From assembly GCA_023417885.1 (NCBI GenBank), contig JAEZED010000140.1, positions 1 to 22,583 on the forward strand: a stretch of 22,583 nt of DNA, read 5' to 3'. Positions within the stretch are counted from its first letter, which is position 1. Every line of letters starts with the position of its first letter. Source of the stretch: Planctomycetota bacterium (GTDB lineage Bacteria; Planctomycetota; Phycisphaerae; Tepidisphaerales; Tepidisphaeraceae). The translations under genes were made by a program, and so were the position numbers. The notes under the pieces are model-generated. The model ran no database searches and was not told the DNA's origin. It saw nothing but the letters and a program-made list of their open reading frames with translations. Positions 101-18,616 of this stretch are shown in pieces.

Positions 101-2044
101 TCAGAAGGGGAGAGACTGGTCCATCCAGTCGTCGCTGCGGAGGACCTGCTTGCGGTGGAAGCGGGCGAGCTTCTCGGCGCGGGCCTGGGCGATGCCGATG
201 AGCCTTTCCGGGCCGATCGCGCGCCAGCGCTTGCGCAGCTTGTCGGCGTGGCGCTTCAGCAGATCGTCGTCGGCGCTGGCGAACATCTGCGCCACGCCCG
301 GATCTCCCTGGCGGGCGGCGCGACCGAAGAGCTGGCGATCCACCCGCCCGCTGCCGTGCGGCTCCGTCGCGATGACATGAAGCCCGCCGTTCTCGGCGAC
401 GCCGCGGCCGAGGTGGATGTCGGTGCCGCGCCCGGCCATGTTGGTGGCGACGGTGATCGCGCCCGGCTGCCCGGCTTCGGTGACGATCTGCGCCTCCTCC
501 CGGTCCTGCCGCGCGTTGAGGACGCGGTGCGGGAGGTTGCGCGCGGTGAGGCGGCGATCCACCTCCTCGCTCGACCAGACGCTGCGCGTGCCGATCAGCA
601 CGGGAACGCCCTTGCGGTGAAGTTCTTCGACGCGCTGGGCGACCGCCTCCCACTTCTCCTCGGCAGTCTCGAAGAAGCGCATCGGAAGCTGCTGCCGGAT
701 GCACGGCTTGTTCGTGGGAATGCGGACGACGGCGCGGTTGTAAATCTGCCACAACTCGCCGCGCGCCTCCCAGGCCGTACCCGTCATGCCCCCCATGATC
801 GGATACTGCCGGAAGAACCGCTGGAAGCTGAGGCGGGCGAGATTCTCCTTGTCGCTCGTGACCGCCAGCCCCTCCTTGATCTCCATCGCCTGGTGGAGGC
901 CGGAGCGCCAGGAGCGGTCGGGCATGGTGCGCCCGGTGAACTCGTCGATGATGACGATCTTCCCGTCCTCGCTGATCAGGTACTGCTCGTCCTTGTGGAA
1001 GCAGTTCTCCGCGACCAGCGCCTGCGTCACCAGTTCCTCCCGCCGGCGCCGCCCCGCCCAGAAGCCCTCGTCACGCTGCATCGACTCCGCCAGCTCGTGC
1101 AGCCGCGTCTTGCCGCGTCCCGTGAGATCGGCCTTCCGGTCGGTGCGATCGACGGTGTAGTCGCGACCCTCCTCCAGCCGCAGCGCCAAGTCGCGCGCCT
1201 CGCGGTAGAGCGGCTCGTTGGCGTTGCCGTCCGGCGAGTTGCTGATGATCAGCGGCGTGACCGCCTCGTCGATCAGCAGGGAGTCGGCCTCGTCCACGAT
1301 CGCCCGGAACAGGCCCGGCACGAGGCACGGCCGCGCCCCCTGCCCCGCCAGCATTGAGACGGCCGTCGAGGTGGAGCTGCGCCGGTCGCCGAGCTGGATC
1401 TGGTCGCGCAGAAAGTCGGCGACGAGCTCCTTGCTGGTGCTGTAGACCACGCCGCTGCGGTAGGCCTGGAAGCGCTCCTGCGGCGTCGTATCGTGGATCA
1501 CGTGCGCCACGCGCAGGCCGAGCATCTCGTAGAGCGGCCGGTTCCACTGCGCGTCGCGCGCCACGAGGTAGTCGTTGACCGTGATCACGTGCACCGGCCG
1601 GCCCGACCAACCCCAGATCGCCGCCGCGATGGCCGCGGTCAGCGTCTTGCCCTCGCCGGTGGCCATCTCGGAGATGTATCCGCGCGTCATGCCTGCGGCG
1701 CCCATGATCTGCACGTCGAAGGGGCGCTTCTCAAGCGTGCGGACCGCCGCCTCGCGCACGACGGCGAAGGCGCGCTCCAGGTCTCGCCCCTCCAGCTTGC
1801 CGAGCCGCGCCAGCGAGCGGAGGCGATTGACCTCCTCGCGGAACGCGCTGCTCCCCAGCTTCTTCACCTCCGGCTCGTGCTCCCCCACCGCGTCGGCAAA
1901 CGCGCGCAGCGATCGCAGCACGGGCGTCTTGTGGCGCACCCAGCCGACCAGCGCGTTGGCGGCCGTGTCCAGCCCCTTGACCTCAGGGGCCTTGACGCGG
2001 CGCGCGTCGAAGATGTGAAAGAGTTCGCCGGCGGCTGAGCTCAT
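101..2044 (-). CDS. SecA-like ATPase paralog, C-terminally minimal: nucleotide-binding domains 1 and 2 plus the preprotein cross-linking domain only, with no helical scaffold, wing, two-helix finger or C-terminal tail
   Basis: The 647-aa translation aligns by eye to the SecA N-terminal two-thirds: Walker A MATGEGKTLTAA, the VDEADSLLIDEAVTPLIIS (DEAD-like) motif, and TNMAGRGTDI with LHVIATEPHGSGRVDRQLFGRAARQGD of NBD2. The protein ends at ...ARFHRKQVLRSDDWMDQSLPF, which corresponds to the very start of the long HSD helix of E. coli SecA. There is a clean TGA stop at 101..103. GAGGG lies 8 nt upstream of the ATG, which is only 18 nt after the stop of the upstream gene. Confidence 0.85.
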   Translation of the reverse strand: MSSAAGELFHIFDARRVKAPEVKGLDTAANALVGWVRHKTPVLRSLRAFADAVGEHEPEVKKLGSSAFREEVNRLRSLARLGKLEGRDLERAFAVVREAAVRTLEKRPFDVQIMGAAGMTRGYISEMATGEGKTLTAAIAAAIWGWSGRPVHVITVNDYLVARDAQWNRPLYEMLGLRVAHVIHDTTPQERFQAYRSGVVYSTSKELVADFLRDQIQLGDRRSSTSTAVSMLAGQGARPCLVPGLFRAIVDEADSLLIDEAVTPLIISNSPDGNANEPLYREARDLALRLEEGRDYTVDRTDRKADLTGRGKTRLHELAESMQRDEGFWAGRRRREELVTQALVAENCFHKDEQYLISEDGKIVIIDEFTGRTMPDRSWRSGLHQAMEIKEGLAVTSDKENLARLSFQRFFRQYPIMGGMTGTAWEARGELWQIYNRAVVRIPTNKPCIRQQLPMRFFETAEEKWEAVAQRVEELHRKGVPVLIGTRSVWSSEEVDRRLTARNLPHRVLNARQDREEAQIVTEAGQPGAITVATNMAGRGTDIHLGRGVAENGGLHVIATEPHGSGRVDRQLFGRAARQGDPGVAQMFASADDDLLKRHADKLRKRWRAIGPERLIGIAQARAEKLARFHRKQVLRSDDWMDQSLPF

Positions 2045-2062
2045 GGAAAAACCCTCAACCCT

Positions 2063-4300
2063 CTACTGCTGCTGCTGCATGCCGCGCGTGGTGCGCTGCG
2101 TCTGGATGAGCTGGAGGAAGCCGCGCCACCACTGTCGCGCCAGCGGCTCGTCGTCCAGCTTCACGCGGACGTAGGCCCGCTGACCCGGCAGACACTCGCG
2201 TCCCCCGTCGGCGGCGACCGGGTTGTCCAGGATCACGCGCATCTCGAACTGGTCCAGCGCCGTCTTGTTCGGATCGCGCGGGTCGGGCGCCAGCGTTCCC
2301 CCGCCGGCGTACGTCAGCGACGGGTTGCGAACCTCGTTCTTGGCCGACTGGAGCAGCCGGATCTCATCGAGATTCAGCCCCTCCAGGTCGGTGGCGTAGC
2401 GGATCTCGTCGATCTCGCTGGCAAGCCGCACCTGGACCGTCCGGGTGGGGTCCGCCAGGATGCGTTGGAAGTCCTCCTGGCCGACGGTCACAAAGACCTC
2501 CAGCCGCTCGTCGTTCCGCACCTCGCCGATCGTCTGCCCGCGCTTCAGGTGACGCCCCAGCGCCTGGTCGATGTCGGGCGCGATAAGCTCGCCGGCGTTG
2601 GGCGCGACGACCGTCAGCTCCGCCACCTCGCGCTCCAGGACGGCCAGCGCCTCGTGCGCGGCCGTCACCTGCTGGCGGACGACGTCCGCCTCGGCGGCGC
2701 TGCTGTGCAGCTGGGCGGCGGCGAGCAGGATGCGGGCGCGGTTCAGCTCGATGCGCGCGACCTCCAGGCGCGTCGCCAGCGTCGGGTTCTCCAGGCGCAG
2801 CAGCACCTGCCCCGCCTCGACCTGCTCCCCGTCGCGGACGAGCACCTCCACGACCTGTCCGGGCGAGCGCACGACCGCGCGCCCGCGCTCCAGCGGCTCG
2901 CTGATCCCCTCGGCGCGCACGGCGCTGGGGAACGGGATGATCGCCAGCAGCACGACGGCGGCGCTCGCGACCGCCAGGGTGAAGCCCCAGGCGCGCGTGC
3001 GCTTGCGGTGCAGCTCCGGATCGGTGGTCAGGTACTTGAAGAGCTTGAAGAACGGAACGACGAAGAACGTCGTGATGGCCCCCGCGGCCAGGAAGAGCCC
3101 GACGATCTGGGCCCATTCCGGCAGCTGGTACATCACCATGATGATGATCGCAAAGCCGATGAAGATGCGGTAGATCGTGCTGGCGACGCTGTAGAAGACC
3201 AGCCACGCTTTCTGCCGCAGGGTCGGCGGGAGCGGCTGCGTCGTCTTCACGCGGAACACGTACCGCTTGATCAGCCCCAGCGTGTATTCGCGGCTCTTCT
3301 GCTGGAGGTTGGGGATCTCCAGCCAGTCGCTGAGCATGTAGTACCCGTCATACCGCAGCAGCGGGTTGGCGTTGAACAGGATGGTGCTGACCGAGGCGAT
3401 CAGGATCGTGTAGTAGGCGATCTGGTGAACCGGGTGGTTCTCGCCCGTCGCCGCCCACACGAAGACCGCGATGGCCGCCACGAACAGCTCGGCGATCATT
3501 CCGCCCGCCGCCACGAGGATGCGCTTCCACTTGCTGGGGAAGCCCCAGGCCGTGCTGGCGTCCACGTACGGGCAGGGCATCAGCACCAGGAACATGATGC
3601 CGACCTCGTGCACCTCCCCGCCGAACTTGCGGTTGAGGAAGGCGTGCCCCATCTCGTGCAGGAACTTGGTCACGAGGAAGGTCGCACCCAGCACCAGCCA
3701 CATCTCGATGCTGCCGCTGTTCAGGAAGTCGGTCGTCTGCGCGTAGAAGTCATCCAGCCGCGGCAGGATCACCGCCAGCGCCAGCAGCATGGTGGCGATC
3801 CACAGCATCCCGCCCCACTTCGTGATGAACGGCCCGACCAGCGGCATCCACCGCTTCAGGTAGTAGTCCGGATCCCAGAGCGGGATGCGCGGGAACAGGA
3901 TGTTCATCAGCCGGCCCTGGAACTTGCGCTGGCGCTGCTTCTTGTGGCGGCGCAGGAGCACCTGGGCGTCGGGGCTGATATTCGTCTCGATCAGGTTCGC
4001 AGCGTAAAGCTGCGTCAGGATCTGGATGATCTCCGGCTGCGTCGGCGCGTCGTCGGCAAGCTGCCCGCCCACCAGCTCCCACGCGTCGCCGACCGTCCGC
4101 GTCCCGTCGAGCAGGCCCACGAACCGGTAGGCGACGTCCGAGAGCCGGTGGAACTGGTTGCCCGCGGGATCGCGCACCACGTACCAGCGCTCACCGCGGT
4201 ACCACTGGCGTGAGATCTGTGCCGCGGCGCGCAGCCGAGGCTTGAGGTCCTTGACGCGGTACCAGCTCTCGCTGAAGGTTGGCCGGAGTTGGAGGGTCAT
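2063..4300 (-). CDS. Tripartite membrane protein: N-terminal PqqD-like (RRE-like) peptide-binding region, peptidase M50 (site-2 protease family) polytopic core, and C-terminal HlyD-type periplasmic adaptor domain
   Basis: 745-aa ORF. Residues ~30-108 (WYVVRDPAGNQFHRLSDVAYRFVGLLDGTRTVGDAWELV...EIIQILTQLYAANLIE) fit the PqqD/RRE pattern. About 8 predicted TM helices carry the zincin motif FLHEMGHAF and the second S2P motif NANPLLRYDGYY (NxxPxxxxDG). The C-terminal ~300 aa has a biotin-lipoyl-like hairpin (VVRSPGQVVEVLVRDGEQVEAGQVLLRLEN), a coiled coil and a beta-barrel typical of HlyD/MFP adaptors. Confidence 0.85.
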   Translation of the reverse strand: MTLQLRPTFSESWYRVKDLKPRLRAAAQISRQWYRGERWYVVRDPAGNQFHRLSDVAYRFVGLLDGTRTVGDAWELVGGQLADDAPTQPEIIQILTQLYAANLIETNISPDAQVLLRRHKKQRQRKFQGRLMNILFPRIPLWDPDYYLKRWMPLVGPFITKWGGMLWIATMLLALAVILPRLDDFYAQTTDFLNSGSIEMWLVLGATFLVTKFLHEMGHAFLNRKFGGEVHEVGIMFLVLMPCPYVDASTAWGFPSKWKRILVAAGGMIAELFVAAIAVFVWAATGENHPVHQIAYYTILIASVSTILFNANPLLRYDGYYMLSDWLEIPNLQQKSREYTLGLIKRYVFRVKTTQPLPPTLRQKAWLVFYSVASTIYRIFIGFAIIIMVMYQLPEWAQIVGLFLAAGAITTFFVVPFFKLFKYLTTDPELHRKRTRAWGFTLAVASAAVVLLAIIPFPSAVRAEGISEPLERGRAVVRSPGQVVEVLVRDGEQVEAGQVLLRLENPTLATRLEVARIELNRARILLAAAQLHSSAAEADVVRQQVTAAHEALAVLEREVAELTVVAPNAGELIAPDIDQALGRHLKRGQTIGEVRNDERLEVFVTVGQEDFQRILADPTRTVQVRLASEIDEIRYATDLEGLNLDEIRLLQSAKNEVRNPSLTYAGGGTLAPDPRDPNKTALDQFEMRVILDNPVAADGGRECLPGQRAYVRVKLDDEPLARQWWRGFLQLIQTQRTTRGMQQQQ

Positions 4301-4310
4301 TGGTAGAAAA

Positions 4311-4331
4311 GCGAGAAGCGAGAAGCGAGAA
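4311..4331 (-). repeat. Three perfect tandem copies of the heptamer GCGAGAA (plus strand), equal to UUCUCGC x3 on the minus-strand transcript; the array ends ~10 nt upstream of the start codon of the M50 fusion gene
   Basis: Direct reading gives aaaGCGAGAAGCGAGAAGCGAGAAacc. On the coding (minus) strand this is a pyrimidine-rich tract occupying the position where a Shine-Dalgarno sequence would normally sit. Confidence 0.9.
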
Positions 4332-4397
4332 ACCGGAGCGGGGCAGGAGGCGGAGTCGAGCAGGCGCGGAGCGCTGCATCGTCTTCTGGGTCCTGGC

Positions 4398-4415
4398 TTC
4401 CCGCTTCCCGCTCCT
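4398..4415 (-). repeat. Two tandem copies of GCGGGAA on the minus strand (TTCCCGC x2 on plus), immediately after the stop of the GAF-HlyD gene. They are complementary, allowing G-U wobbles, to the UUCUCGC array ~66 nt downstream in the same transcript
   Basis: Plus strand reads cttcccgcttcccgctcc. In RNA, 5'-GCGGGAAGCGGGAAGC pairs with 3'-CGCUCUUCGCUCUUCG as 16 bp including 2 G-U pairs. Confidence 0.8.
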
Positions 4416-4421
4416 TCTGAA

Positions 4422-6383
4422 CTAGATCCACAGCTTGAGGCGCACCCAGTCGGTCAGGCGGTGCGTCCACTGCCAGATGAGCGGGCGCTTGCCCACGTCG
4501 AGGCGCACCTCGCCGGTTCCGCCGGGACGCCAGAACTGGTCGGGCTCTCCGACAGGCGAGGCGTAGACGGTGAAGGCGTTGGTGCCCTGCGTCGCCTCCG
4601 CGGCCTCGATGATGCGATCGACCTTGATCGGCACCTTCAGGTCCGGCCGGGCGGCGGTGGCGAGCGTGCCGGTGCGACCTTCAGCGATGTCGTCGATATC
4701 GCGGTCGGCGACGGCGATCTCGATGCGCAGGTGGCTCGGATCGCCCACCAGAAGCAGCTCGTCGCCGAGCTGGACGCTGGTGTTCACCCGCTCGCGCAAG
4801 TCCGCGGCGCCGGGCACCTGGAGCACGACGCCGTTCATCGGCGCCTTGAGCGTGGCGCGGTCGATCTCGCGCTGGAGGTTGTCGATCTCGTGCTGGAGCG
4901 CCTTTGCCGACTCCTCCTCGGCGTCGGCCTCGGCGATGGCCGACGGGTTCTCACTGCGGCGCTGCCGGTAGGCGTAGGCGCGGGCCAGGGCCGACCGGCG
5001 CTCGCTCTGCTTCTGGCTCAGTTCCGACTCGAGCTGGCGGGTGTCGAGCTTCAGGAGCGGCTGGCCCGCGGTGACGGTGTCGCCGATGTCAACGAAGACC
5101 TGCTCGATGGTGCTGGCGAAGGGGGCGTCGACAATGCGGCGCTCCAGCGGGACGAAGCTGAAGGGGGCCGAGACGCGGTACATCGGCGAGTAGAGGCACA
5201 GGAAGAGCACCAGCGCGATGGCCGAGGCGATCAGCACCTTCGCCAGCGTGTGCTGGCGCAGGCCGAAGACCTTTTTCGTCGTGCGCTTCGTGCTCAGGCC
5301 CGCCTTGGTGATCAGGTATCGGTCGTTCTCGTACCGGTCGTAGAGCTGGGGCGCCAGCAGCTCGGCGGCGACGGCCAGGGCCGTCGATTCCTGAGGCGTG
5401 CTGGGCTTCTCCGGCGGGAACTCGAGCGTGAGAACGCCGACGATCTCGTCCTTGCGGCGCAGCGGGATGCTGGCGACGCGGTTGTTCCCCTCCATCTGCG
5501 AAAGGGTCATCGCCTCGCGGGTGACGTTGTCGGTGGAGGCGCCGGCCGGGTCGAACTGCGTGAACTCGTCCTGGTCGAGGCACTCCTCCATCACCTTGAC
5601 GATCTGGACGGAGAGCTCCTGCTTCTTGTCGAACTCTTCGGTGTGGCTGATCGCCTGGAGCTTGACGTGTCGGCCCCGTACCCAACCGATGGCGACGCGG
5701 GCGGCGCCGGCGCGCGTCGCCAGCTCGTTGCAGAGGCCGGCGGCCGAGGCGTGGAAGTTCTCGCCCGTGGCGACGGAGCTTGCGAATTGGAAGACATCCT
5801 GGTGGGTCTTGGCGACCTGCCGGGCCTGCTCGTTCTGCCGTTTCAGAAGGAAGAAGTCGAAGTACCCCGCGACGAGCTGCATCGTGTTGAGCCGCTGGAG
5901 GGCACGGCTCTGGTCCTTGCAGCGCGTTACGACCGCCGTCGCGGCGACGACGCGGTTCTCGTTGCGAAGCAGGGTAACGAGGCAGAACTGCGGATCGACG
6001 TCGTCGGTCCCCTCGCCGACGCGCAGGGCCCCGTCCTTGTCCTCGAGGATGCACTGGGTGACGATTTCCCGGAAGGCCATGATCGCCTGCCGGCGGATCG
6101 CCTCCTCGGAGTTGTCCGGACGCACGTGGGCGACGGTGCGCAGCTCCGGCTTGCCGTCACCGGTCTGCCCCTCGAGGAGAAAGGCGGCCGCCTCGGTGCC
6201 TGCGACGACGATCGCCTGCGTGGTGATCAGGTCGTGCATGAACTCGGGCAGGTTGCCGTCGTTGGCGACCAGCCGCTGGACGAGCCGGGCCCGCGCGATG
6301 CGGTTCTCCTGCTTTTTCTGTTCTTCCTGCTGCCGCTGTTGCTCCTCCGGCTGGGGGGCGTACGGCTGGGCGACGGATGCCAT
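4422..6383 (-). CDS. HlyD-family adaptor with N-terminal tandem GAF-like cytoplasmic sensor domains (GAF-GAF-TM-HlyD)
   Basis: 653-aa ORF. The N-terminal ~380 aa form two ~150-aa alpha/beta blocks with a GAF-like pattern, which is an inference. A single TM follows (VLIASAIALVLFLCLYSPM). After it come a biotin-lipoyl-like motif (IEQVFVDIGDTVTAGQPLLKLD), a long coiled coil and a beta-barrel/MP domain (LKAPMNGVVLQVPG...). GAGG lies 9 nt upstream of the ATG. Confidence 0.8.
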   Translation of the reverse strand: MASVAQPYAPQPEEQQRQQEEQKKQENRIARARLVQRLVANDGNLPEFMHDLITTQAIVVAGTEAAAFLLEGQTGDGKPELRTVAHVRPDNSEEAIRRQAIMAFREIVTQCILEDKDGALRVGEGTDDVDPQFCLVTLLRNENRVVAATAVVTRCKDQSRALQRLNTMQLVAGYFDFFLLKRQNEQARQVAKTHQDVFQFASSVATGENFHASAAGLCNELATRAGAARVAIGWVRGRHVKLQAISHTEEFDKKQELSVQIVKVMEECLDQDEFTQFDPAGASTDNVTREAMTLSQMEGNNRVASIPLRRKDEIVGVLTLEFPPEKPSTPQESTALAVAAELLAPQLYDRYENDRYLITKAGLSTKRTTKKVFGLRQHTLAKVLIASAIALVLFLCLYSPMYRVSAPFSFVPLERRIVDAPFASTIEQVFVDIGDTVTAGQPLLKLDTRQLESELSQKQSERRSALARAYAYRQRRSENPSAIAEADAEEESAKALQHEIDNLQREIDRATLKAPMNGVVLQVPGAADLRERVNTSVQLGDELLLVGDPSHLRIEIAVADRDIDDIAEGRTGTLATAARPDLKVPIKVDRIIEAAEATQGTNAFTVYASPVGEPDQFWRPGGTGEVRLDVGKRPLIWQWTHRLTDWVRLKLWI

Positions 6384-6647
6384 AGGAGGGCCTCACACTG
6401 CGAGTGACATCGATTCGGCGCCCCTTTCAGGGGACGGGAACCAGATGATGGAACGGACGCTCGTCGCGAATGGGACGAATCGGGGCAGGCGGAGGTTCAT
6501 CTCCTGCCAAACCCCACCTTGCCTTCTTGAACCTGCTGGCCGGCTTGCCGGGCGGCGCCCCGGCCCCTGCTTCAACGCTAAGTCTAGCAACCTCCCCGCT
6601 CTTTCTGCCCGCGGAAACGCCAAATGGTCGCGGCGCACGCCGTCCGA

Positions 6648-7544
6648 TTAAGCCCCGTCCTGCCCGGGAAGGCGCACTTCGACCCGCAGGCCTGCCGGAC
6701 GACCCTCCGGATTGGACAGCTCCGCCCGGAACGGCAGGCGGGAGGTCGTGCCCGAGGGGTTGCCCACCGGGTTGATGAAGACGATTGTCGCGTCGCGCCA
6801 CTGGTCCTCCCCCTCGTAGCGCACCTGGATCGTGTCGCCGAGCTTCAACGCCATCACCTCGCGGGCCGGCACCGTCGGTATCTCTACGTAAAGCGGGTCG
6901 ATCTTCACGACACGCATGGCGGGCGTCTGGGGGCCAAAGACCTCACCCACGGTCGCCTCGATTTGCTGGACCACCCCGGTCTCGGGGCTGCGCAGGGTCT
7001 TTTGCTCGACGATGTACTGCTGCTCCTCCGCCCGGTGCGTTGCAACCTGCCCCAGCCGCTGCTCCTCGAGGATCCGCGTGTCCGCCGCCTTCACCTCGAG
7101 TTGGGCGCGCTCCGCCTCGAGCGGGGAGAGCGCAGGCCCGGCCTCCTCGGCGGCCTTGAGCTCGACACGCGCCAGGTCCGCCTGCGTGCGGGCAAGATCG
7201 ACGCGATCCCCGACGTTGGCCTCCAGCTGAAGGGCCTGGAGCCGGGCGATGTCGGCCCGGATGTCCTGCACCATCAGCACCTGCCCGGCTTCCACCTGGT
7301 CCCCCTCCTTCACGTTCACTTCCAGGATCTGCCCCAGGTTCGGGAAGGCCAGATCCATCTCGCGGCTGGGGATGGTGTTCCCCTCGAACAACGCCGCCGC
7401 CTCCTGCGACGGGCGATATTCCTGGGTGCTGGCGCGATCCTGCGCCACGAGCGCCCCGGCGGTGAGGAGGATCATCGGCACGGCCAGGAGCCCCGGTGGG
7501 CGGGCGGGGGGCGCTCGGGGCCGGTCTTGGGTCGATAGTGTCAT
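6648..7544 (-). CDS. HlyD/membrane-fusion-protein family periplasmic adaptor subunit; first gene of the operon
   Basis: 298-aa ORF with N-terminal signal/TM (LLAVPMILLTAGALVA), a lipoyl-like hairpin (GQILEVNVKEGDQVEAGQVLMVQD), a coiled coil, a beta-barrel (LRSPETGVVQQIEATVGEVF) and a C-terminal MP domain. Confidence 0.8.
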   Translation of the reverse strand: MTLSTQDRPRAPPARPPGLLAVPMILLTAGALVAQDRASTQEYRPSQEAAALFEGNTIPSREMDLAFPNLGQILEVNVKEGDQVEAGQVLMVQDIRADIARLQALQLEANVGDRVDLARTQADLARVELKAAEEAGPALSPLEAERAQLEVKAADTRILEEQRLGQVATHRAEEQQYIVEQKTLRSPETGVVQQIEATVGEVFGPQTPAMRVVKIDPLYVEIPTVPAREVMALKLGDTIQVRYEGEDQWRDATIVFINPVGNPSGTTSRLPFRAELSNPEGRPAGLRVEVRLPGQDGA

Positions 7545-7835
7545 TTCTTCGTGTCCGTTGAGGAGTGGGGGGAAGGCCCGGGGCCTGTGAAGACCACCAT
7601 CCTTCGCGCTGGGTTAGGGGCTTATACAGACGGGACGGCCCGCCGCGAAGTTCACCGCATTATCAGGCGTTTCCGTCACAAGTCACGCCAAACCACCCGG
7701 GGAAGAGCGTCACGCACCCGCCCCGCCACCCGCGACGAGCGCAAAAACCGCTTCCAAAGCCCGCGCGACAGCCTGGGAAGTCGGTGGCGCGGGCGATTCT
7801 GGAGGTGCGAATCGCGTGCGGTTAGGCTGTGGCCG

Positions 7836-8067: not shown

Positions 8068-8451
8068 TCAGGCGTATCCCAGTTCCTCGAGGTCGTCCTC
8101 GTCGAGGCCGAAATGGTGGCCCAGCTCGTGGAGGAGGGTGATCCGCACCTGTTCCACGAGGTCCTCCCTGTCCTCGCTGGCGTCCTCGATGTCCTCCCTG
8201 AAGAGCGTGATCACGTCCGGGAGGCGGGCGTGATCCTCGATATGCCGGTCGGTCAGAGGAACGCCTTCGTAGAGGCCCAGGAGCAGCTCATCGTCCGCCA
8301 TCCCCAGCTCCCGGAGCTTGCGGCGGGAGGGGCGCGGCTCGATCCGGATCGGCACTTCCGCCTCGATCGTGGCGCGCCATCGCTCCGGCAGGCGAGAAAT
8401 TGCCTGGGCAACAAGGTCCGAGAACTCGACATCGGTCACGTCAAACGGCAT
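8068..8451 (-). CDS. Zincin_1-like (DUF1025) mini metallopeptidase family protein
   Basis: C-terminal TLLHELGHHFGLDEDDLEELGYA matches the HExxH-containing signature of small ~120-aa Zincin_1 proteins. The start is taken at the internal ATG (MPFDVTDVEF...), because the upstream part of the track ORF is R/P-rich with poor codon usage. Confidence 0.6.
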   Translation of the reverse strand: MPFDVTDVEFSDLVAQAISRLPERWRATIEAEVPIRIEPRPSRRKLRELGMADDELLLGLYEGVPLTDRHIEDHARLPDVITLFREDIEDASEDREDLVEQVRITLLHELGHHFGLDEDDLEELGYA

Positions 8452-8552: not shown

Positions 8553-9566
8553 ATGCCAAAGCCGCTTGCACTTTCAGGGATGATGTTTCTCGTGCTGGGT
8601 CTGCTCAGCGGATGCTCCATCCCCAGCTTTCTCATCACGCCCGTCTCCAGCAGCCCCGAGCTGAAGGAGACGGTCGTCGCCGACGGCACGCGCAAGCACA
8701 AGATCGCCATCATCCCCGTCGAGGGGATGCTCATGAACACCCGCATGGGCTCGGGCGGAATTCTCGGCGCCGAGGAAAACAAGGTCAGCCTCTTCAAGCA
8801 GCAACTCGACGCCGCGGCCGCGGATGATCGCGTCGAAGCGGTCATCCTCCGCATCAACAGCCCGGGCGGCACCGTCGCGGCAAGCGACCTGATGTACGAG
8901 CTGGTGCGCGACTTCAAGCAGAAGACGGGCAAGCCCGTCGTTGCCACCTGCCAGGACGTCTGCGCCAGCGGCGGCTACTACATCGCCAGCGCCGCCGACG
9001 AGATCCATGTCCTTCCCACGAGCGTGGTCGGGAGCATCGGGGTGATCTTCGAGACATTCGACATCTCCCCCCTTCTCGACAAGATCGGGGTCCGGATCAC
9101 GCCGCTCCAGAGCGGGCGGTACAAGGACTTGGGCAGCCCGTTCAACGGCCTGTCGGACGACGAGCGGGAGATCATGCAGGGGATGGTGGACGAGTTCTAC
9201 GCCCGTTTTGTGGGAGTGGTCCGTGACTCGCGCCAGGTGCGCGACGAGGAGATCGCCTTCGACGGGCGGGTCTTTACCGGACAGCAGGCCTACGAGCAGA
9301 ACCTCGTGGACGCCGTCTGCCAGCTTCCCGAAACGATCGCCCGCGTGAAGGGGATGATCGGGGAGCGGGATGCCCGGGTGGTGATGTATCGCCGGCCGTA
9401 TGGATACACCGGCAGCATTTACGCCAGAAGCGGCGACCTGTCGCCGCGCGCGTCCGAGTCAGCGGCTGGCGCGGATGACCCTTCAGCATGGGTATCGCGC
9501 CTGCCGATGGTAAATCAGGTGAGCCAGGCCCTGGAGCCGGGCTTTTACTACCTGTGGATGCCGTAG
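8553..9566 (+). CDS. sppA: Signal peptide peptidase SppA (36K type), predicted lipoprotein
   Basis: Lipobox LLSGC. ClpP/crotonase-fold motifs of SppA are present: IAIIPVEGML, RINSPGGTVAAS, the catalytic Ser context CASGGYYIASAADEI, and a Lys in PLQSGRYKDLGSP. ACGAGG lies 9 nt upstream of the ATG. Confidence 0.85.
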   Translation: MPKPLALSGMMFLVLGLLSGCSIPSFLITPVSSSPELKETVVADGTRKHKIAIIPVEGMLMNTRMGSGGILGAEENKVSLFKQQLDAAAADDRVEAVILRINSPGGTVAASDLMYELVRDFKQKTGKPVVATCQDVCASGGYYIASAADEIHVLPTSVVGSIGVIFETFDISPLLDKIGVRITPLQSGRYKDLGSPFNGLSDDEREIMQGMVDEFYARFVGVVRDSRQVRDEEIAFDGRVFTGQQAYEQNLVDAVCQLPETIARVKGMIGERDARVVMYRRPYGYTGSIYARSGDLSPRASESAAGADDPSAWVSRLPMVNQVSQALEPGFYYLWMP

Positions 9567-9590: not shown

Positions 9591-10007
9591 ATGATCGCGT
9601 TGCGGTGCAACAGCTGCGGGCAGGAACAGGAACTGGATGACGCGTTCATCGGCAGCGTGTGCCGTTGCCGCGCGTGCGCCGCCATCCAGGCCGTTCCGGA
9701 ACTCCCCGCCCCACTCGATTCTTCAGCAAGACTTCCCGCACCGGTGATGGAAGGGACGCTGCTTTACTGTCCCGCCCCGGCCGGCGAGCGAAGCAACCGC
9801 CCCAGGACCTGCGCCCTTCCCCAGCGCAAGGCTCCGGCGTCGGCCGACCGGACACTCATCATGGCGATCGGCCTGGCTGCCGCGCTGGCGCTGGGCGCCG
9901 CCGGCGCCGCCATCGCCGTCATCGTCGCCGCCGAAAGGCCGATGGTGCCCGAGTCGCCGCCGCATGTGGCGGTGGATGTCCTGGCCCGATCGATCGACGG
10001 GCCGTAA
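9591..10007 (+). CDS. Hypothetical zinc-ribbon protein with a C-terminal transmembrane helix
   Basis: N-terminal CxxC...CxxC pattern (CNSCGQEQELDDAFIGSVCRCRAC), a Pro-rich linker, then the hydrophobic helix IMAIGLAAALALGAAGAAIAVIVAA. A strong RBS, GAGGAGGA, sits 8 nt upstream of the ATG. Confidence 0.5.
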   Translation: MIALRCNSCGQEQELDDAFIGSVCRCRACAAIQAVPELPAPLDSSARLPAPVMEGTLLYCPAPAGERSNRPRTCALPQRKAPASADRTLIMAIGLAAALALGAAGAAIAVIVAAERPMVPESPPHVAVDVLARSIDGP

Positions 10008-10168
10008 CACGACACTTCCAAAAGCAGGCGCGGTTTGGCCGCGAATGCGGGCGCCGGTAACATCCGCCCGCTGCCGGCGGGCAGGCCGTGCCTCTTCTTT
10101 CTGCACCTCTCACCTCTTTGTCGTCGCCACGGAAGGTTTGCCTCGTGCCCAAGGTCGCATCGCGTGCC

Positions 10169-10837
10169 ATGCCCCGTTCCACCGCCAAGCGCGTGACGCG
10201 ATCGACCCGGGCCAAGCGCCCCGCCTCGCGCGGCGGCAAGGGACAGCGCTCGCCGGCCGCGGGCCTGCCGCGCGGCGTGATCGTCGGTGGAGCGCTGCTG
10301 GCGGCCCTGGGGGTGACGTGCATCCTGCTGGCGATCCTCTCTCCCTCGCCGCTGACGCCCGACGTCACGGCCCGCCTCTTCGTCACGAGCACCGGCGTCG
10401 AGCCGCTGGAGTCGGTGGTCGCCCCGGCTGCCCCCGGCCGCTGGGACACGATCTACATCCACCACAGCAAGACGCCCGGCGGGGACACCTCGACGCTTGC
10501 CGACCTTGCCCGGGCGCGTGGAATCGTCGGCCCGCCGGACCACTTCGTGATCGGCAACGGGGACGGGATGGGGGATGGGGAGGTGCAGGTGACGAGCCGG
10601 TGGAGCGAGCAGTCCCCCGCCGCCTCGCCGGCCCCGGGGGCGCGGATCGAGCCGGGGTGCATCAGCATCTGCCTGATCGGCGATTTTGACCGGATGCGGC
10701 CGACGGAGGCGCAGCGGGCGTCGCTGGCGCGGCTCCTGGGCGTGCTGGAGGATCGCCTGCAACTGGGGGCGGACCGGGTGCTGCAATTGTCACAGGAAGG
10801 ATCGGCGGCCGGGGTCGGTCGGCATTTTGTCCGATGA
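10169..10837 (+). CDS. N-acetylmuramoyl-L-alanine amidase (Amidase_2/PGRP-like) domain protein with a basic N-terminal tail and TM anchor
   Basis: WDTIYIHHSKTP...HFVIGNGDGMGDGEVQVTSRW...CISICLIGDF...PTEAQRASLARLLGVLEDRLQL follows the Amidase_2 pattern (IxIHHT ... HFxI ... GIxLxG ... Q...L). The track ORF begins at 10088, but its first 27 codons have atypically low GC3, so the start is more likely ATG ~10169 or GTG ~10145, the latter preceded by GGAAGG. Confidence 0.5.
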   Translation: MPRSTAKRVTRSTRAKRPASRGGKGQRSPAAGLPRGVIVGGALLAALGVTCILLAILSPSPLTPDVTARLFVTSTGVEPLESVVAPAAPGRWDTIYIHHSKTPGGDTSTLADLARARGIVGPPDHFVIGNGDGMGDGEVQVTSRWSEQSPAASPAPGARIEPGCISICLIGDFDRMRPTEAQRASLARLLGVLEDRLQLGADRVLQLSQEGSAAGVGRHFVR

Positions 10838-11159
10838 AGGAATGGTGATCGGTAAGTCCCGGGTTGGCCGGGGCATGAGGCGCGCGGACGAAATGCGTCG
10901 CCGGCGGCGTTTTGGTGACGGGGGGAGCAGGACGTCCCGTAGAATGCGAAGCGGGCATGCACCGCAGGGTGGTGTGTTGGCGCAGCGCGAGTGGGTGAAT
11001 GTGCGTAAGGGGTGCGCTAAGCTACGCTACTCGGGTCGGCACCGTGTTGCCGTCGGCCGGGACGGAGGGCTCGGCCGGGGAGGAAGAGGGTCTGTCGCCG
11101 ACAGCCCGCGCGGCCCAGATTGGTGCCGGATACCGCAGCAGATTTAGCGTCATACGTTC

Positions 11160-11987
11160 ATGCCTGAACAACTGCTCCACTACAAGATCCTTGACGTCCT
11201 GGGGAAAGGTGCCGCCAGCACCATCTATCGTGCGCAGGATCTGAACACCGGGCGCGTCGTCGCGCTGAAGCACGTCACCCGGGTGAAGCAGAAGGACATT
11301 CGCTACATCGAGCAGATGGAGACCGAGTACGAGGTCTCCAAGTCGTTCACGCACCCGAACTTGCGCCGGGCGCTGATGCTCCGCATCAACAAGACCCTCC
11401 TGATGAAGGTCACCGAGGCGATCCTCGCCCTCGAGTACGTCGATGCCAAGCCGCTCGAGCGCGCCCTACCGCCCGACCTGAACGACGTGCTGGACATCTT
11501 CCTCCAGGCAGCCCTCGGGCTTCAGGCGATGCACCGCATGGGCTACGCCCACTGCGACATCAAGCCCAGCAACCTCCTGGTCGACGGGCAGATGCAGGTC
11601 AAGGTGATCGACTTCGGCCAGGCCTGCCGGATCGGAACCGTCAAGGAGCGCATCCAGGGCACGCCCGACTACATCGCCCCCGAGCAGGTCACCCGCCAGC
11701 CCGTCACCGAGGCGACTGACGTTTTTAATCTCGGCGCCACCCTCTACTGGGCCAGCACCGGCAAGCACATCCCCACCGCCTATCACGCCAAGCGGAAGGG
11801 GGAGAACAGCTTCCTCGTCGACAGCCTCTTCAAGACGCCGCGCGACCTGAACCCGGAGGTGCCGCTTCCGGTCAGCGAGGCGATCATGCAGTCGGTCGCC
11901 ACCAGTCCCAAGCACCGCCCCCAGACGATGGACGAGTTCATCCGCAAGCTCGAGCTCGGAAGGCACGTGCTCAAGGCCGCCCACTGA
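11160..11987 (+). CDS. Stand-alone Ser/Thr protein kinase (Hanks-type catalytic domain only)
   Basis: Glycine loop LGKGAASTIY, VALKHV (VAIK), catalytic loop HCDIKPSNLL, DFG as IDFGQA, APE as YIAPEQV. 275 aa, with no TM or sensor domains. Confidence 0.85.
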   Translation: MPEQLLHYKILDVLGKGAASTIYRAQDLNTGRVVALKHVTRVKQKDIRYIEQMETEYEVSKSFTHPNLRRALMLRINKTLLMKVTEAILALEYVDAKPLERALPPDLNDVLDIFLQAALGLQAMHRMGYAHCDIKPSNLLVDGQMQVKVIDFGQACRIGTVKERIQGTPDYIAPEQVTRQPVTEATDVFNLGATLYWASTGKHIPTAYHAKRKGENSFLVDSLFKTPRDLNPEVPLPVSEAIMQSVATSPKHRPQTMDEFIRKLELGRHVLKAAH

Positions 11988-12031
11988 CAGACATCCGCGC
12001 GGCGGAGCTTTTCCGTCGTCGTTCGCACAGA

Positions 12032-12063
12032 AGCCGGGGCCACGCGCCCCGGCTTTTCATTTT
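12032..12063 (+). terminator. Rho-independent terminator downstream of the kinase gene
   Basis: AGCCGGGGC-cacgc-GCCCCGGCT gives a perfect 9-bp GC-rich stem with a 5-nt loop, followed by TTTTCATTTT. It lies 45 nt after the kinase stop. Confidence 0.55.
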
Positions 12064-12108
12064 CGTCGCACCTCCGCGGGGCGCGGCGGACTCCTAGCAT
12101 GCCGCGCG

Positions 12109-13329
12109 ATGGCAGAATCACCCAGGAAGATCATCCTTGCCTACTCCGGCGGCCTCGACACCAGCGTCATCCTCCCATGGCTCAAGGAGCGATACCCGGG
12201 CGTGAAGCTCGTGGCCTTCGCCTGCGAACTGGGCCAGGGCAGCGAGCTGGCAGGCGTCGAGGAAAAGGCCAGGAAGAGCGGCGCCGACGAGGTGATCGTC
12301 GCAGACCTCCGCCGGGAGTTCGCAGAGCAGTATTGCTTCCCGATGCTTCGCGCCCACGCGATTTATGAGCGTGACTACCTGCTCGGCACGAGCATCGCGC
12401 GCCCGCTGATCGCCAAGGCGCAGGTCGAGGCGGCTCGGCAGACCGGCGCGGACGCCGTCGCCCACGGCGCCACCGGCAAGGGAAACGACCAGGTGCGCTT
12501 CGAGCTGACCTACATGGCCCTGGCGCCGGACCTGAAGATCATCAGCCCCTGGAAGATGGCCGACTTCGAGCTGCGCGACCGCGAATCCGCCGTCGAGTAT
12601 GCCCAGAAGCACGGCATCCCGATCGCCCAGACGAAGGAGAAGATCTACTCCCAGGACCGCAACCTCTGGCACATCAGCCACGAGGGGGCGGAGATCGAGC
12701 ATCCGGACCAGGAGCCGGCGTGGGATCGCTGCCTGACGATGAGCGTTCCACCGGAGCAGGCGCCCGACGAGCCGGAGACCGTGACAATCCAGTTCGAGCA
12801 GGGCAACCCGCGCGCCGTCAACGGGGCCGCGCTGGATGGCGATGCCCTGATCGCGCGCCTCAACGAGATCGGCGGCCGGCACGGCGTGGGCGTCACCGTG
12901 CTCGTCGAGAACCGCCTCGTCGGCATGAAGAGCCGGGGCGTCTACGAGACGCCGGGCGGGACGATTCTCTACGCCGCCCACAACGCGCTCGAGCAGCTCA
13001 CCCTCGAGCGCGACCTGTTCCACTTCAAGGAGCAGATGGCGCTGCGCTACGCGGAGCTGGTCTACTACGGGCAGTGGTTCCACCCGCTGCGCCAGAGCAT
13101 GCAGGCGTTCATCGACCACGCCAGCCGCAGCGTGACGGGCGAGGTGACGGTCAAGCTCTTCAAGGGCCGCGCCACCGCCGTCAGTGCGACCAGCCCCAAC
13201 AGCCTCTACGACCCAGGCCTGGCCAGCTTCAGCATGGAGGGCTACGACGTGACAGCGGCCCGCGGCTTCATCGACTGCTTCGGCCTCCCGATGAAAGTTG
13301 CCGGCCTGCGCGAGCGACAGCCGCGGTGA
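12109..13329 (+). CDS. argG: Argininosuccinate synthase
   Basis: N-terminal PP-loop IILAYSGGLDTSVIL and conserved blocks (AHGATGKGNDQVRFE, NLWHISHEG, ENRLVGMKSRGVYETPGGTIL). 406 aa is the typical length. Confidence 0.95.
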   Translation: MAESPRKIILAYSGGLDTSVILPWLKERYPGVKLVAFACELGQGSELAGVEEKARKSGADEVIVADLRREFAEQYCFPMLRAHAIYERDYLLGTSIARPLIAKAQVEAARQTGADAVAHGATGKGNDQVRFELTYMALAPDLKIISPWKMADFELRDRESAVEYAQKHGIPIAQTKEKIYSQDRNLWHISHEGAEIEHPDQEPAWDRCLTMSVPPEQAPDEPETVTIQFEQGNPRAVNGAALDGDALIARLNEIGGRHGVGVTVLVENRLVGMKSRGVYETPGGTILYAAHNALEQLTLERDLFHFKEQMALRYAELVYYGQWFHPLRQSMQAFIDHASRSVTGEVTVKLFKGRATAVSATSPNSLYDPGLASFSMEGYDVTAARGFIDCFGLPMKVAGLRERQPR

Positions 13330-13390
13330 CCGCCGAAATGTCGCAAGCACCGGCGGTGCAGGCGGCATGCGCCTTGCCCCACTGTGACGC

Positions 13391-13906
13391 ATGAGTGCGA
13401 CTGATGTGGCCAACGTCGAGGTGGAGGCGATCAACCTGCCGCCGGGCGAGGATGTGCCGAATCATCCGCGCTGGCCGTTGCTGCTGTACCGGCAGGCCGT
13501 CCCGCACAACGCCGGCGAGGTGGAGCGGCTGATCGAGTCCAACAAATGGGCCGGCGTCTGGCGCAACGGCGTTCATTCCTATCACCACTTCCACACCACC
13601 GCGCATGAGGTGCTGGCGGTCGTGGCCGGACGGGCGACGTTGCAGTTCGGCGGGGAGAACGGGCAAGCGGTCGCCCTCTCGGCTGGTGACGTTGCGATTC
13701 TTCCTGCGGGTACCGGTCACAAGCGCCTCGACGCGAGCAACGACTTTCTCCTCGTCGGTGCATACCCGCAGGGGCAGGAGGATTACGACCTCCAGCGCGC
13801 GCCACCCGGTGACGCCCAGCGCAAGCGCGTGGCGCGGACGCCTCGCCCCGCCGCCGATCCGATCTTCGGCGCTCGCGGCCCGCTCATGCAACGCTGGGCC
13901 GAGTGA
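13391..13906 (+). CDS. Cupin-fold protein, YjlB-like family
   Basis: PNHPRWPLLLYRQAV near the N-terminus and a His-rich cupin core (VHSYHHFHTTAHEVLAVVAGRATLQFGG...GDVAILPAGTGH). Confidence 0.65.
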   Translation: MSATDVANVEVEAINLPPGEDVPNHPRWPLLLYRQAVPHNAGEVERLIESNKWAGVWRNGVHSYHHFHTTAHEVLAVVAGRATLQFGGENGQAVALSAGDVAILPAGTGHKRLDASNDFLLVGAYPQGQEDYDLQRAPPGDAQRKRVARTPRPAADPIFGARGPLMQRWAE

Positions 13907-16900: not shown

Positions 16901-17012
16901 CCGGATTGGTCCAGGTGTCGGCGTAGGCCGTGGTGCTGCCAAGAGACACCGCGGCAACCGCCGCAACGAGTGCACGCGACGAAATCTTCATTGTCATCTT
17001 CTTGCTTGTCAC
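13959..17012 (-). CDS. Large secreted Gly/Ser/Thr-rich beta-helical repeat protein with a C-terminal PEP-CTERM sorting signal (exosortase substrate)
   Basis: Signal peptide MKISSRALVAAVAAVSLGSTTAYA. About 900 aa of degenerate ~25-30-aa repeats (LxVGYS/VGFS...GxASGS). The C-terminus VPEPGSLLLAPLAGLLCMRRRR is a PEP motif followed by a TM helix and an Arg cluster. AAGGGGG lies 8 nt upstream of the first ATG. Confidence 0.8.
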   Translation of the reverse strand: MTSKKMTMKISSRALVAAVAAVSLGSTTAYADTWTNPGVGDWFDPANWAGSGPYPYFPVFIDNGGTAIADPTSPLYTGGPIQTGFLHLGVAIVDGSQPPGATGHVQVNNLDVFTNNTLVAGYSALGGSTHGSLQITGGDLEVNAGTSSVGVARDGASQATGSVLINGGNASFTSGLSIGIALAPDNPGQGAFADGSFTVSTGSLSAGSLTVGSAIGTTSAQGSLDVAGDLTLTGSGLTVGMVDQTSVAAGNINAGGSLHYGDGGQVRVGYSTGGVAGGAVNADGPGLNVALSRAYVGRALNGGVASGSYETLNAYTGLDGFYVGTAYMGGNADGTFLAGSLTGGDAAPWLYTFVGVLEAGAGSASGYAIIPGTVRNLTPAGPSTYLQVGAMNGLSEGITSGDAEGLLTVAEGIIGFSNLRVGFAANADSGFAQGTLISGFGDIAATPGTSGSALVGYATSGASTNGDLRIQVGDLTGYQSLSVGFSSAAGSASGSVELENGSLDLLNGPLTVGYAVSTGGASGSVIVNGSVNISHTGAHNIGFSTAGGATGSFTAGSGTVTGSNIRVGYSAGGSAVGQFLTQADVTASLIDVGFSDNGTAVGRLAANSITVDGAGSVVGLRVGEMLVGTGSVDGRVEVQGALTAAMPTPNSTWPGLGIGLLGTVSSGSTNGQALGSVEVGAGITGFSSIRIASAFPQATGLAQGALEVTSGGISGNGLSGITVGVTTGAGDAQGELRVVGDINGYTGLSVGQSSGGEAVGEVTLHDGFSTFAGAVNVGRSSVAGQASGSLTLRDAFLVSDGLRVGELSSGGSRAQGLVRAEQSVISVGGTALIGWNGTGDPAGEAIAAVELTESVLTTTGDIAIAPHFDAPLASGRLELRNALAITQASLVIGAGGELIFEIAGPDRTDGNPQPGLYSAIDAHAAAIGGGMLVAEFTFLPTAGDVFDLIRTDQPDGIGGAFDNVMVLGLPDAAIYSYGIAFDDMGNEVYRLSVSAVPEPGSLLLAPLAGLLCMRRRR

Positions 17013-17176
17013 AAATGCCCCCTTTGCCCCGGGAGAAGTTCGCCAAAACCTACACGATCAACAGCGCCTCGCAAAGCTCATGATCGGAAGTAAGGCGCGC
17101 CTTTGAGCGCGGGCGGGACGGTCGTGCGGGGTTTTCCGGTATTTGCGGCGCGATGTCGGCGGCACGCTAACCTTGT

Positions 17177-17581: not shown

Positions 17582-17696
17582 CTGGCCGGGCCGGTCGCCC
17601 ATCCAGCCCCCCTGCGGCTGTTCTCCCATCCCGAACCTCTATCCCCGCCGGCCCGGCCCGCGGGCGGCGCCGGGGGCTGAATTTCGCGCCTCCTCC

Positions 17697-18563: not shown

Positions 18564-18616
18564 CGCAACAGGCGCGGCGGTGAGCGTCGGGCCGCGGAAC
18601 AGGAAATGGAGACGAG

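Follow-up and report, generated by a model that had tools for sequence, protein, structure and literature searches.

We analysed a 22,583-nt stretch of DNA from a Planctomycetota bacterium (contig JAEZED010000140.1 of assembly GCA_023417885.1), referred to here as the window. Four consecutive, co-directional genes on its minus strand (7544..101) encode three proteins with HlyD-type adaptor domains, one of them fused to an M50 metalloprotease, and a SecA-like ATPase. The window has a GC content of about 68%. In transcription order, the operon comprises the following features.

7659..7686, minus strand: sigma-70-like promoter match upstream of the operon's first gene, 9/12 consensus matches
6648..7544, minus strand: HlyD1, 298 aa, small membrane-fusion (periplasmic adaptor) protein
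4422..6383, minus strand: GAF-HlyD, 653 aa
2063..4300, minus strand: fusion of a putative ribosomally synthesized and post-translationally modified peptide (RiPP) recognition element (RRE, PqqD-like), an M50 protease and an HlyD domain, 745 aa
101..2044, minus strand: SecA-like ATPase, 647 aa

An initial sequence-only reading of this DNA had proposed one transcription unit of four genes without opposing genes, and the arrangement holds. The open reading frames (ORFs) lie at these positions, a site scan found no terminator-like site inside the operon, and the plus strand within 101..7544 contains no credible gene. The intergenic spacers are 264, 121 and 18 nt; the two shorter values agree with the earlier reading, and the longest had been given as 265 nt, off by one. 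The codon-position GC of all four genes (GC3 0.88–0.95, GC2 0.41–0.46) in a window of 68% GC indicates that the four ORFs are real genes. In 8.6 kb there are two sigma-70-like sites where 0.3 would be expected, counted by consensus match alone, which is no evidence of function; with respect to the operon, a promoter-like site is present upstream of it only, at 7686..7659. Rfam and tRNA scans of the window returned no RNA elements and no tRNAs.

By a hydrophobicity scan, the two smaller HlyD proteins have one transmembrane (TM) segment each, the M50 protein has a multi-TM core at residues 164–457, and the SecA-like protein has no TM segment. The predicted topology fits cytoplasmic GAF, RRE and SecA-like parts combined with periplasmic adaptor domains. 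The spacer between HlyD1 and GAF-HlyD holds one ORF (6393..6638), which is Arg/Gly-rich and without a homolog. This ORF was considered as a small substrate gene and rejected: it is probably a spurious frame, with no homolog and a spacer that is absent in relatives.

The sequence-only reading did not recognise this combination as a described system, a claim that does not stand, since the same module appears in a computational study by Kamneva, Poudel and Ward (PLoS One 2015, PMC4452313). [quoted passage not shown] In their proposal, a type-I-like secretion system has SecA_DEAD as its ATPase and M50 as its membrane component. Members given in their S2 Table include Phycisphaera mikurensis (PSMK_16490/16500), Rhodopirellula baltica (RB142-146), Methylobacterium extorquens AM1 (META1p2399-2402), Bordetella avium, Ruegeria pomeroyi, Magnetococcus and Nitrospira defluvii; the table also names SapC and a small hypothetical protein among the genes often found nearby. 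In their phylogeny the secondary SecA_DEAD clade lies beside actinobacterial SecA2. The work is computational only, with one microarray set re-analysed, and its main text makes no mention of substrates, giant proteins, PqqD/RRE or SapC. A literature search, with subscription-only papers outside it, found no other paper on this locus and no experimental follow-up.

The window operon contains a SecA_DEAD protein that lacks the wing/scaffold, with adjacent co-directional M50-HlyD, GAF-HlyD and HlyD genes. It shares the four protein types, the range of phyla (including Phycisphaera) and the functional proposal with the 2015 locus, from which its gene content is no different. The window operon is therefore a further instance of a module that was named in silico in 2015 and is experimentally uncharacterised. 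What is new here is the invariance of the protease site, the RRE fold, the intact ATPase motifs with short tails, the TolC/OEP linkage and the giant or LEPR-XLL neighbours.

We collected homologous neighbourhoods from plasmids and by exact-protein look-ups. The cassette was found in more than 20 loci of Planctomycetota, Verrucomicrobiota and Alphaproteobacteria, in unrelated flanks; many alphaproteobacterial plasmids carry it. The conserved four-gene synteny in three phyla rules out chance juxtaposition of the genes. Representative loci outside the plasmids of Alphaproteobacteria listed further below, together with the SecA-less variant discussed later, are as follows.

L001: Tepidisphaerales metagenome-assembled genome, gene order as in the window
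L005, L006, L026, L027, L028: Phycisphaerae-like contigs, gene order as in the window
L004: verrucomicrobial metagenome-assembled genome
L002, L023, L024, L025: Pirellulales
L009: E. coli IncFIA/FIB plasmid NZ_CP081687.1, SecA-less variant
L022: Azospirillum plasmid, SecA-less variant

In alphaproteobacterial loci of the same layout, the M50 protein is 29–36% and the SecA-like protein 43–49% identical to those of the window. From the identical architecture and these identities we infer orthology to the published members (e.g. META1p2399-2402, PSMK_16490/16500).

HlyD adaptors usually work with a pump and a TolC-like channel, neither of which the sequence-only reading had seen here. For the pump this stands: no ATP-binding cassette (ABC), resistance-nodulation-division (RND) or major facilitator superfamily (MFS) pump is encoded in the window operon or recurs in homologous cassettes, and for those plasmid loci that are annotated, the records show no ABC exporter within the cassette or in the stretch separating it from the giant gene described below. 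A TolC-family gene is likewise absent from the 22.6-kb window. This does not extend to the homologous loci, where OEP/TolC genes lie inside or beside the cassette in L004 (Verrucomicrobia), L023 (Mariniblastus fucicola), L024 (Rhodopirellula islandica), L007 (Methylosinus) and L016 (Thalassospira).

Profile searches with Pfam and NCBIfam confirm the HlyD, M50 and SecA assignments as well as the HExxH and NxxPxxxxDG motifs. The 745-aa fusion protein consists of a recognition domain (residues ~20–105), a polytopic zinc metalloprotease core of the site-2-protease type (~145–455) and a periplasmic adaptor. Peptidase_M50 (Pfam) matches at 29.7 bits against a cut-off of 27.2 and is found in 66/66 family members. 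The motifs are HEMGH at 215–219 and NANPLLRYDG at 310–319, the latter providing the Asp ligand D318. H215, E216, H219 and D318 are invariant in 238/238 homologs, an alignment of full-length sequences from two planctomycete clades with 23–77% identity to the window protein. Both motifs are also kept in all 14 diverged orthologs (21–56% identity) from the loci linked to candidate substrates, described below. The protease site is therefore under strict selection. The AlphaFold2 (AF2) model of the fusion, built on 87 sequences, has a predicted local distance difference test score (pLDDT) of 91.7 and a predicted TM-score (pTM) of 0.78. In its helical core, the HExxH helix is followed by a beta-hairpin. 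In the C-terminal third, which carries a short alpha-hairpin (506–560), the model resembles AcrA, MexA and MacA (Foldseek E ~1e-13). The family is large, with 4,318 cluster representatives at 50% identity (E<=1e-30).

A PqqD/RRE-like module had been suggested for the N-terminus. The fold model and homologs support it, while the Pfam PqqD score of the window protein itself, 21.5 bits, is slightly under the cut-off of 23.4. The same family matches 20 of 66 homologs, and the Methylosinus ortholog matches PQQ_PqqD at E 1e-5. Modelled alone (AF2, pLDDT 80.7), the domain has a beta-beta-beta-alpha-alpha-alpha topology. Foldseek relates it to the leader-bound lasso-peptide B1 proteins 6jx3_B and 5v1u (target TM-score 0.6–0.68) and to the RRE-bearing TglHI, ThcOx and CteB; the best-ranked matches are GdmN chains (E 3e-4), not RRE proteins. 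The N-terminal domain thus models as an RRE fold (PqqD-like winged helix) with a putative role in peptide recognition. Over residues 22–415, the closest curated families are NCBIfam daptide_HExxH (NF041824, E 6e-46) and YydH/LiaK (NF058609, E 2.8e-11). Neither equivalog cut-off is reached (157 vs 300 bits and 43.5 vs 225 bits, respectively).

The SecA-like protein matches SecA_DEAD (E 2.4e-87), SecA_PP_bind (E 6.8e-26) and P-loop_SecA (E 9e-53). It contains nucleotide-binding domain 1, the preprotein cross-linking domain and nucleotide-binding domain 2, followed by a C-terminal tail of 64 residues. The description of this paralog as finger-less is borne out by the alignment to B. subtilis SecA, which covers residues 34–550 only. 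There is no Pfam match to SecA_SW; the helical wing domain, the two-helix finger, the C-terminal linker and the zinc site are absent. The 15 SecA-like sequences compared keep Walker A, Walker B and motifs III, V and VI wherever the region is present (the ORF of L020 is 5'-truncated and lacks the Walker A region). In 15/15 of them, the stretch after motif VI is just 64–81 residues. As judged from these alignments, the finger-less C-terminal truncation is family-wide and the preprotein cross-linking clamp is retained. The canonical SecA models give 561 bits (TIGR00963, cut-off 814) and 545 bits (NF009538, cut-off 800), and the SecA2 models (TIGR03714, TIGR04221, TIGR04397, NF012136) give 355–505 bits against 725–1100. 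No SecY-like gene is present in any locus compared.

The tail (window 101..295, minus strand) follows a cross-phylum pattern, ...AQxRAE...R+xxLxxDxxLxxxLxF, often with an F-x-G end. It probably forms an amphipathic helix with a docking motif, taking the place of the scaffold and finger domains.

HlyD_D23 and HlyD_3 domains (Pfam) are found in three of the operon's proteins. HlyD1 (HlyD_D23 E 4e-14, HlyD_3 E 1.2e-13) has an N-terminal membrane anchor at residues 16–34 in a TM scan. Its orthologs are present in L001, L005, L006, L007, L008, L013, L015, L019, L024 and L025. GAF-HlyD (HlyD_3 E 1.8e-12, HlyD_D23 E 2.2e-11), with orthologs in nearly all loci, has a single TM helix (379–397, TM scan) followed by a periplasmic HlyD adaptor (411–633). 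The earlier reading spoke of GAF domains in the plural. One is confirmed, at residues 215–344 within the predicted cytoplasmic N-terminal region (Pfam, 24.4 bits vs cut-off 22.4); a second is not demonstrated. A PDB sequence search with the N-terminal 356 aa found no relative. None of the three HlyD-domain proteins reaches the RND_mfp model (TIGR01730; 41–69 bits vs cut-off 94.9, HlyD1 being at 69 bits), and type_I_hlyD (TIGR01843) scores are well under the cut-off (22–42 vs 208 bits).

A small peptide substrate gene had been expected to accompany the cassette. No locus contained one; what recurs beside the cassette are giant or RTX proteins that bear an N-terminal LExRxL[LF] motif. A giant ORF lies directly upstream of the cassette in 8/8 assessable alphaproteobacterial plasmid loci.

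L007, Methylosinus: upstream ORF of 26.5 kb, LamG-like jellyroll fold protein
L008, Pseudosulfitobacter: upstream ORF of 38.7 kb (~12,900 aa), LEPR-XLL
L013, Ensifer: upstream ORF of at least 3,357 aa (cut), no annotation in the record
L014, Rhodobacteraceae M382: upstream ORF of at least 3,317 aa (cut), no annotation in the record
L015, Mesorhizobium: upstream ORF of 31.5 kb, Ig-like domain protein
L016, Thalassospira: upstream ORF of 12.1 kb, LEPR-XLL
L019, Pontibrevibacter: upstream ORF of 31.8 kb, LEPR-XLL
L021, Pseudohalocynthiibacter: upstream ORF of at least 2,547 aa (cut), no annotation in the record

Four giant N-termini are readable. They contain LEPRFLLSAD, LEPRVLLNAD, LEPRLLLSAD and IEPRILLSAD, in the contexts ...EALEPRFLLSAD..., ...DTLEPRVLLNAD..., ...EALEPRLLLSAD... 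and ...EPIEPRILLSAD.... The motif is located 36–66 residues from the start of the giant and is preceded by a basic stretch. No Sec-type hydrophobic core is visible by eye on these four N-termini (no signal-peptide predictor was run). All four score above the cut-off of NCBIfam NF012209, "LEPR-XLL domain" (27.5–34.1 bits vs 17), and one gives a weak match to Pfam PF07595, "Planctomycete extracellular" (Planc_extracel). The passage of PMC8567305 that cites Studholme et al. 2004 presents the PF07595 motif as a planctomycete-specific cell-surface signal. Proteins with the NF012209-class motif adjoin the cassette in L007, L008, L015, L016 and L019 (L019 by annotation). An example of a candidate 25-mer leader is KMEALEPRFLLSADPAP.

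Similar neighbours are present in Planctomycetes. In Mariniblastus (L023), the cassette is divergently adjacent to a 7,782-aa DUF4347 protein beginning MANRRIGKRSKLDFISIVEQLEDRVLFDG (...QLEDRVLFDG), and in Rhodopirellula it follows a 3,135-aa DUF4347 protein. In L028, which belongs to the window's own clade (M50 protein 56% identical), the SecA-like gene is directly followed by that of a 554-aa RTX protein with ...PQSEPLEPRLLLAFAH... (EPLEPRLLLA), and an M23 peptidase begins ...FELLERRLLLARPD (...ELLERRLLLA). The M50 proteins of the substrate-linked loci share just 21–56% identity; the linkage therefore persists over deep divergence.

IncF plasmids of E. coli and Citrobacter, as well as Azospirillum, carry a variant without SecA and GAF. 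It comprises a giant DUF4347/Ig-like protein (13.4–14.9 kb gene), TolC, two HlyD proteins and M50-HlyD. Its DUF4347 giant carries ...ALESRQLFDGAA, and the E. coli (L009) giant N-terminus reads ...FALESRQLFDGAA. The E. coli M50-HlyD fusion matches daptide_HExxH at E 1e-50. A tblastn search for the variant matched 17 Escherichia and 8 Citrobacter plasmid records, of which one E. coli record was inspected.

Two further genes recur near the cassette. In five alphaproteobacterial loci (L007:7726-8046, L015:8790-9095, L016:9717-10013, L019:9848-10129 and L021:7641-7985), the gene of a DUF3467 protein of ~100 aa separates the cassette from the giant LEPR-XLL gene. Its probable counterpart in Kamneva 2015 is "cluster 5", and the protein could be a dedicated chaperone; a PDB sequence search found no relative. 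In L008 (12245-13066) and L013 (14262-14960), a gene of the SapC family (PF07277, E 1e-72 in L008) separates the M50-HlyD gene from the SecA-like one. A 2026 Chlorochromatium preprint reports that a SapC gene and a TolC gene flank the giants Cag_663 and Cag_665 of Chlorobium chlorochromatii. It also notes a horizontally acquired extra secA, and connects none of these genes to the cassette.

Our best explanation, held at about even odds, is that the operon encodes the core, in the inner membrane and periplasm, of an envelope-spanning, ABC-less, type-I-like exporter of LExRxL[LF]-tagged proteins, a reading in which we infer the link to the substrate. The likely substrates are proteins, often giant repetitive surface proteins, with an LExRxL[LF] leader within approximately the first 70 residues.

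The individual steps of such an exporter carry less confidence than the general statement of export. The cytoplasmic PqqD/RRE domain of M50-HlyD would bind the N-terminal leader of the substrate. The soluble SecA-like ATPase would then clamp the unfolded chain via its preprotein cross-linking domain and feed it, N- to C-terminus, toward the M50 core. This could take place during translation: an N-terminal signal would allow export to start early, which is attractive for a chain of ~10,000 residues. By homology to the RRE-bearing RiPP leader peptidases, the M50 zinc site may remove the leader. The three different HlyD adaptors would form a periplasmic duct that docks to a TolC/OEP channel, encoded elsewhere in the window's lineage and within the locus in others. 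Finally, the cytoplasmic GAF domain might gate export in response to some ligand. More tentatively, the cassette may represent a distinct diderm secretion pathway, in which the RRE reads the leader, M50 clips it and the finger-less SecA drives the chain through a three-adaptor/TolC duct without ABC or SecYEG; on present evidence we regard this stronger claim as less probable than export as such.

Several observations weigh against export of tagged proteins by the cassette. Neither an LExRxL[LF] ORF nor a substrate-like gene was found in the window, where the sequence 3' of the SecA-like gene ends after 100 nt, and the close relatives L001, L005, L026 and L027 have no motif-bearing neighbour either. 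The DUF3467 (L007, L015, L016, L019, L021) and SapC (L008, L013) genes were not found by tblastn in the window or in the loci of the Planctomycetes-Verrucomicrobia-Chlamydiae group. The motif of the L028 RTX protein has an LEPR-8K score of 14.9 bits, under the cut-off of 17, and the DUF4347-type N-termini are not matched by LEPR-8K, their motif having been found by eye and by regular expression. The alphaproteobacterial loci may not be eight independent events, owing to shared descent. The motor is not always linked, as Thalassospira and L025 have no nearby SecA-like gene, and the SecA-less, GAF-less variant leaves the energy source unexplained. In M. extorquens, the GAF gene alone is clearly expressed in exponential phase (PMC4452313). 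The M50 core as a protein-conducting path and the cleavage of the leader are proposals. The giants may instead take a conventional type I secretion system (T1SS) via a C-terminal signal.

Of the alternative functions, a RiPP- or bacteriocin-type system, which comes near to what the sequence-only reading had in mind, survives best, and it is improbable. The RRE would bind the leader of a small peptide, M50 would cut it and the HlyD duct would export the mature peptide, in parallel with the HlyD-associated exporters of bacteriocins that use a peptidase-containing ABC transporter (PCAT), or with daptide and epipeptide maturation. The best NCBIfam matches of the M50 protein are indeed RiPP leader peptidases, its N-terminal fold resembles RiPP recognition elements, and the NCBI annotation pipeline PGAP names proteobacterial orthologs "PqqD family peptide modification chaperone". 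However, the scores are far under the equivalog cut-offs, roughly half for daptide_HExxH and less for YydH/LiaK. No small precursor-like gene, radical-SAM enzyme, cyclodehydratase or other tailoring enzyme recurs in the more than 20 loci, and the only spacer ORF of the window (6393..6638) is probably spurious. A SecA-type motor with a preprotein clamp and giant neighbours suits protein export better than peptide export.

Regulated intramembrane proteolysis is a still weaker candidate. Here an RseP- or SpoIVFB-like M50 protease would cleave a membrane-anchored regulator on a signal sensed by GAF, with the HlyD domains as periplasmic scaffolds or sensors and the SecA-like ATPase extracting or unfolding the substrate. 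The site-2-protease family fold and motifs, the presence of a GAF domain and the separate expression of the M. extorquens GAF gene are consistent with such a role. Yet neither a sigma/anti-sigma pair nor another membrane-tethered regulator recurs in the neighbourhoods, where OEP/TolC genes and giant extracellular-type proteins do, and three AcrA-like adaptors with TolC-docking hairpins have no obvious function in signalling.

The least probable alternative is small-molecule, lipid or polymer efflux or envelope maintenance, in which HlyD would work with a pump encoded elsewhere, M50 and the SecA-like protein would serve quality control and the giant genes would be linked for another reason, e.g. 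co-mobilisation on the same island: in its favour, each of the three proteins is labelled "efflux RND transporter periplasmic adaptor subunit" by annotation pipelines, a substrate gene is missing from the window and from most close relatives, and SecA-less variants exist, but the RND_mfp scores stay below the cut-off, no RND, ABC or MFS pump recurs, and linkage to motif proteins over M50 identities of just 21–48% in three phyla is hard to explain by hitch-hiking.

The proposed export of tagged proteins can be compared with known systems. Like the classical T1SS (HlyB-HlyD-TolC, or LapBCE and SiiCDF for giant adhesins), the cassette has adaptors of the HlyD/AcrA fold, a TolC-family channel in homologous loci and a genomic linkage to extracellular proteins of very large size and repetitive sequence, often of RTX or Ig-like type; its candidate substrates also show no Sec signal peptide by eye. 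Unlike the T1SS, it has no ABC transporter and three adaptors instead of one, of which two have cytoplasmic domains attached. Its putative signal, LExRxL[LF], lies at the N-terminus, that of the T1SS at the C-terminus, and an intramembrane metalloprotease and a SecA-type motor are added. The RRE-bearing M50 RiPP leader peptidases (NF041824, NF058609) share the N-terminal PqqD-like domain followed by a polytopic HExxH core. The fusion differs from them in scoring at about half the cut-off, in its C-terminal HlyD domain, in its giant neighbours and in the absence of RiPP biosynthetic genes nearby.

The accessory SecA2 of Gram-positives and mycobacteria is also a SecA paralog for special substrates, which for the streptococcal ones are very large serine-rich adhesins. 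In contrast to it, the cassette has no SecY2 or Asp proteins, its motor lacks the C-terminal third and the finger that enters SecY, and its partners are HlyD and M50. PCATs with HlyD partners likewise couple leader recognition, cleavage and export in one envelope machine. They use a C39 cysteine protease and an ABC motor for a peptide cargo, whereas the cassette has an M50 zinc protease, a SecA-type motor and a proposed cargo of up to ~12,900 aa.

The M50-HlyD family spans at least Planctomycetota, Verrucomicrobiota and Proteobacteria, with no experimental study of a member in the searchable literature. If the substrate link is true, it would explain the export of some of the largest bacterial proteins without an adjacent ABC system for C-terminal signals, as well as the purpose of the N-terminal Planc_extracel/LEPR-XLL motif. 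The SecA-like protein would be the first SecA-family motor working outside SecYEG, and the M50 protein the first site-2-type protease acting as a secretion leader peptidase. The substrate link makes the locus a testable hypothesis for how giant LEPR-XLL/Planc_extracel proteins leave the cell. It can be tested directly, since several carriers are amenable to genetic work: Methylobacterium extorquens AM1, Ruegeria pomeroyi DSS-3 (SPO2714-2718) and Bordetella avium (BAV1940-43).

Upstream of the operon and co-directional with it, the window encodes a 127-aa metallopeptidase-like Zincin_1 protein (8068..8451, minus strand; PF06262, E 3e-31), set apart by a 523-nt gap and the promoter-like site. 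It adjoins a divergent SppA gene (Peptidase_S49, 8553..9566, plus strand). The order SppA/Zincin_1/HlyD/GAF-HlyD/M50-HlyD/SecA-like is kept in L026 and L028 and not in L005, L006 and L027. This association is probably lineage synteny and not part of the system. The region 9591..13906 (plus strand) holds housekeeping neighbours, none of which is common to other cassette loci.

10088..10837, plus strand: possible Amidase_2, 25.7 bits, under the 26-bit cut-off
11160..11987, plus strand: Ser/Thr protein kinase
12109..13329, plus strand: argininosuccinate synthase
13391..13906, plus strand: cupin

Further along, 13959..17012 (minus strand) encodes a protein of 1,017 aa that combines a signal peptide with long Gly/Ser/Thr/Ala-rich repeats without a Pfam match and the C-terminal sequence VPEPGSLLLAPLAGLLCMRRRR. 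The latter is a PEP-CTERM-type sorting signal, which implies that the organism has an exosortase system. L026 encodes a similar PEP-CTERM protein near its cassette (16628-19906). The window also encodes a YqiJ/NfeD-like membrane protein (PF21001; 17385..18563, plus strand) and a 645-aa flotillin-like SPFH/Band 7 protein with a long Glu/Ala/Arg/Gln-rich coiled coil (18617..20554, plus strand), which together form the usual NfeD-flotillin pair.

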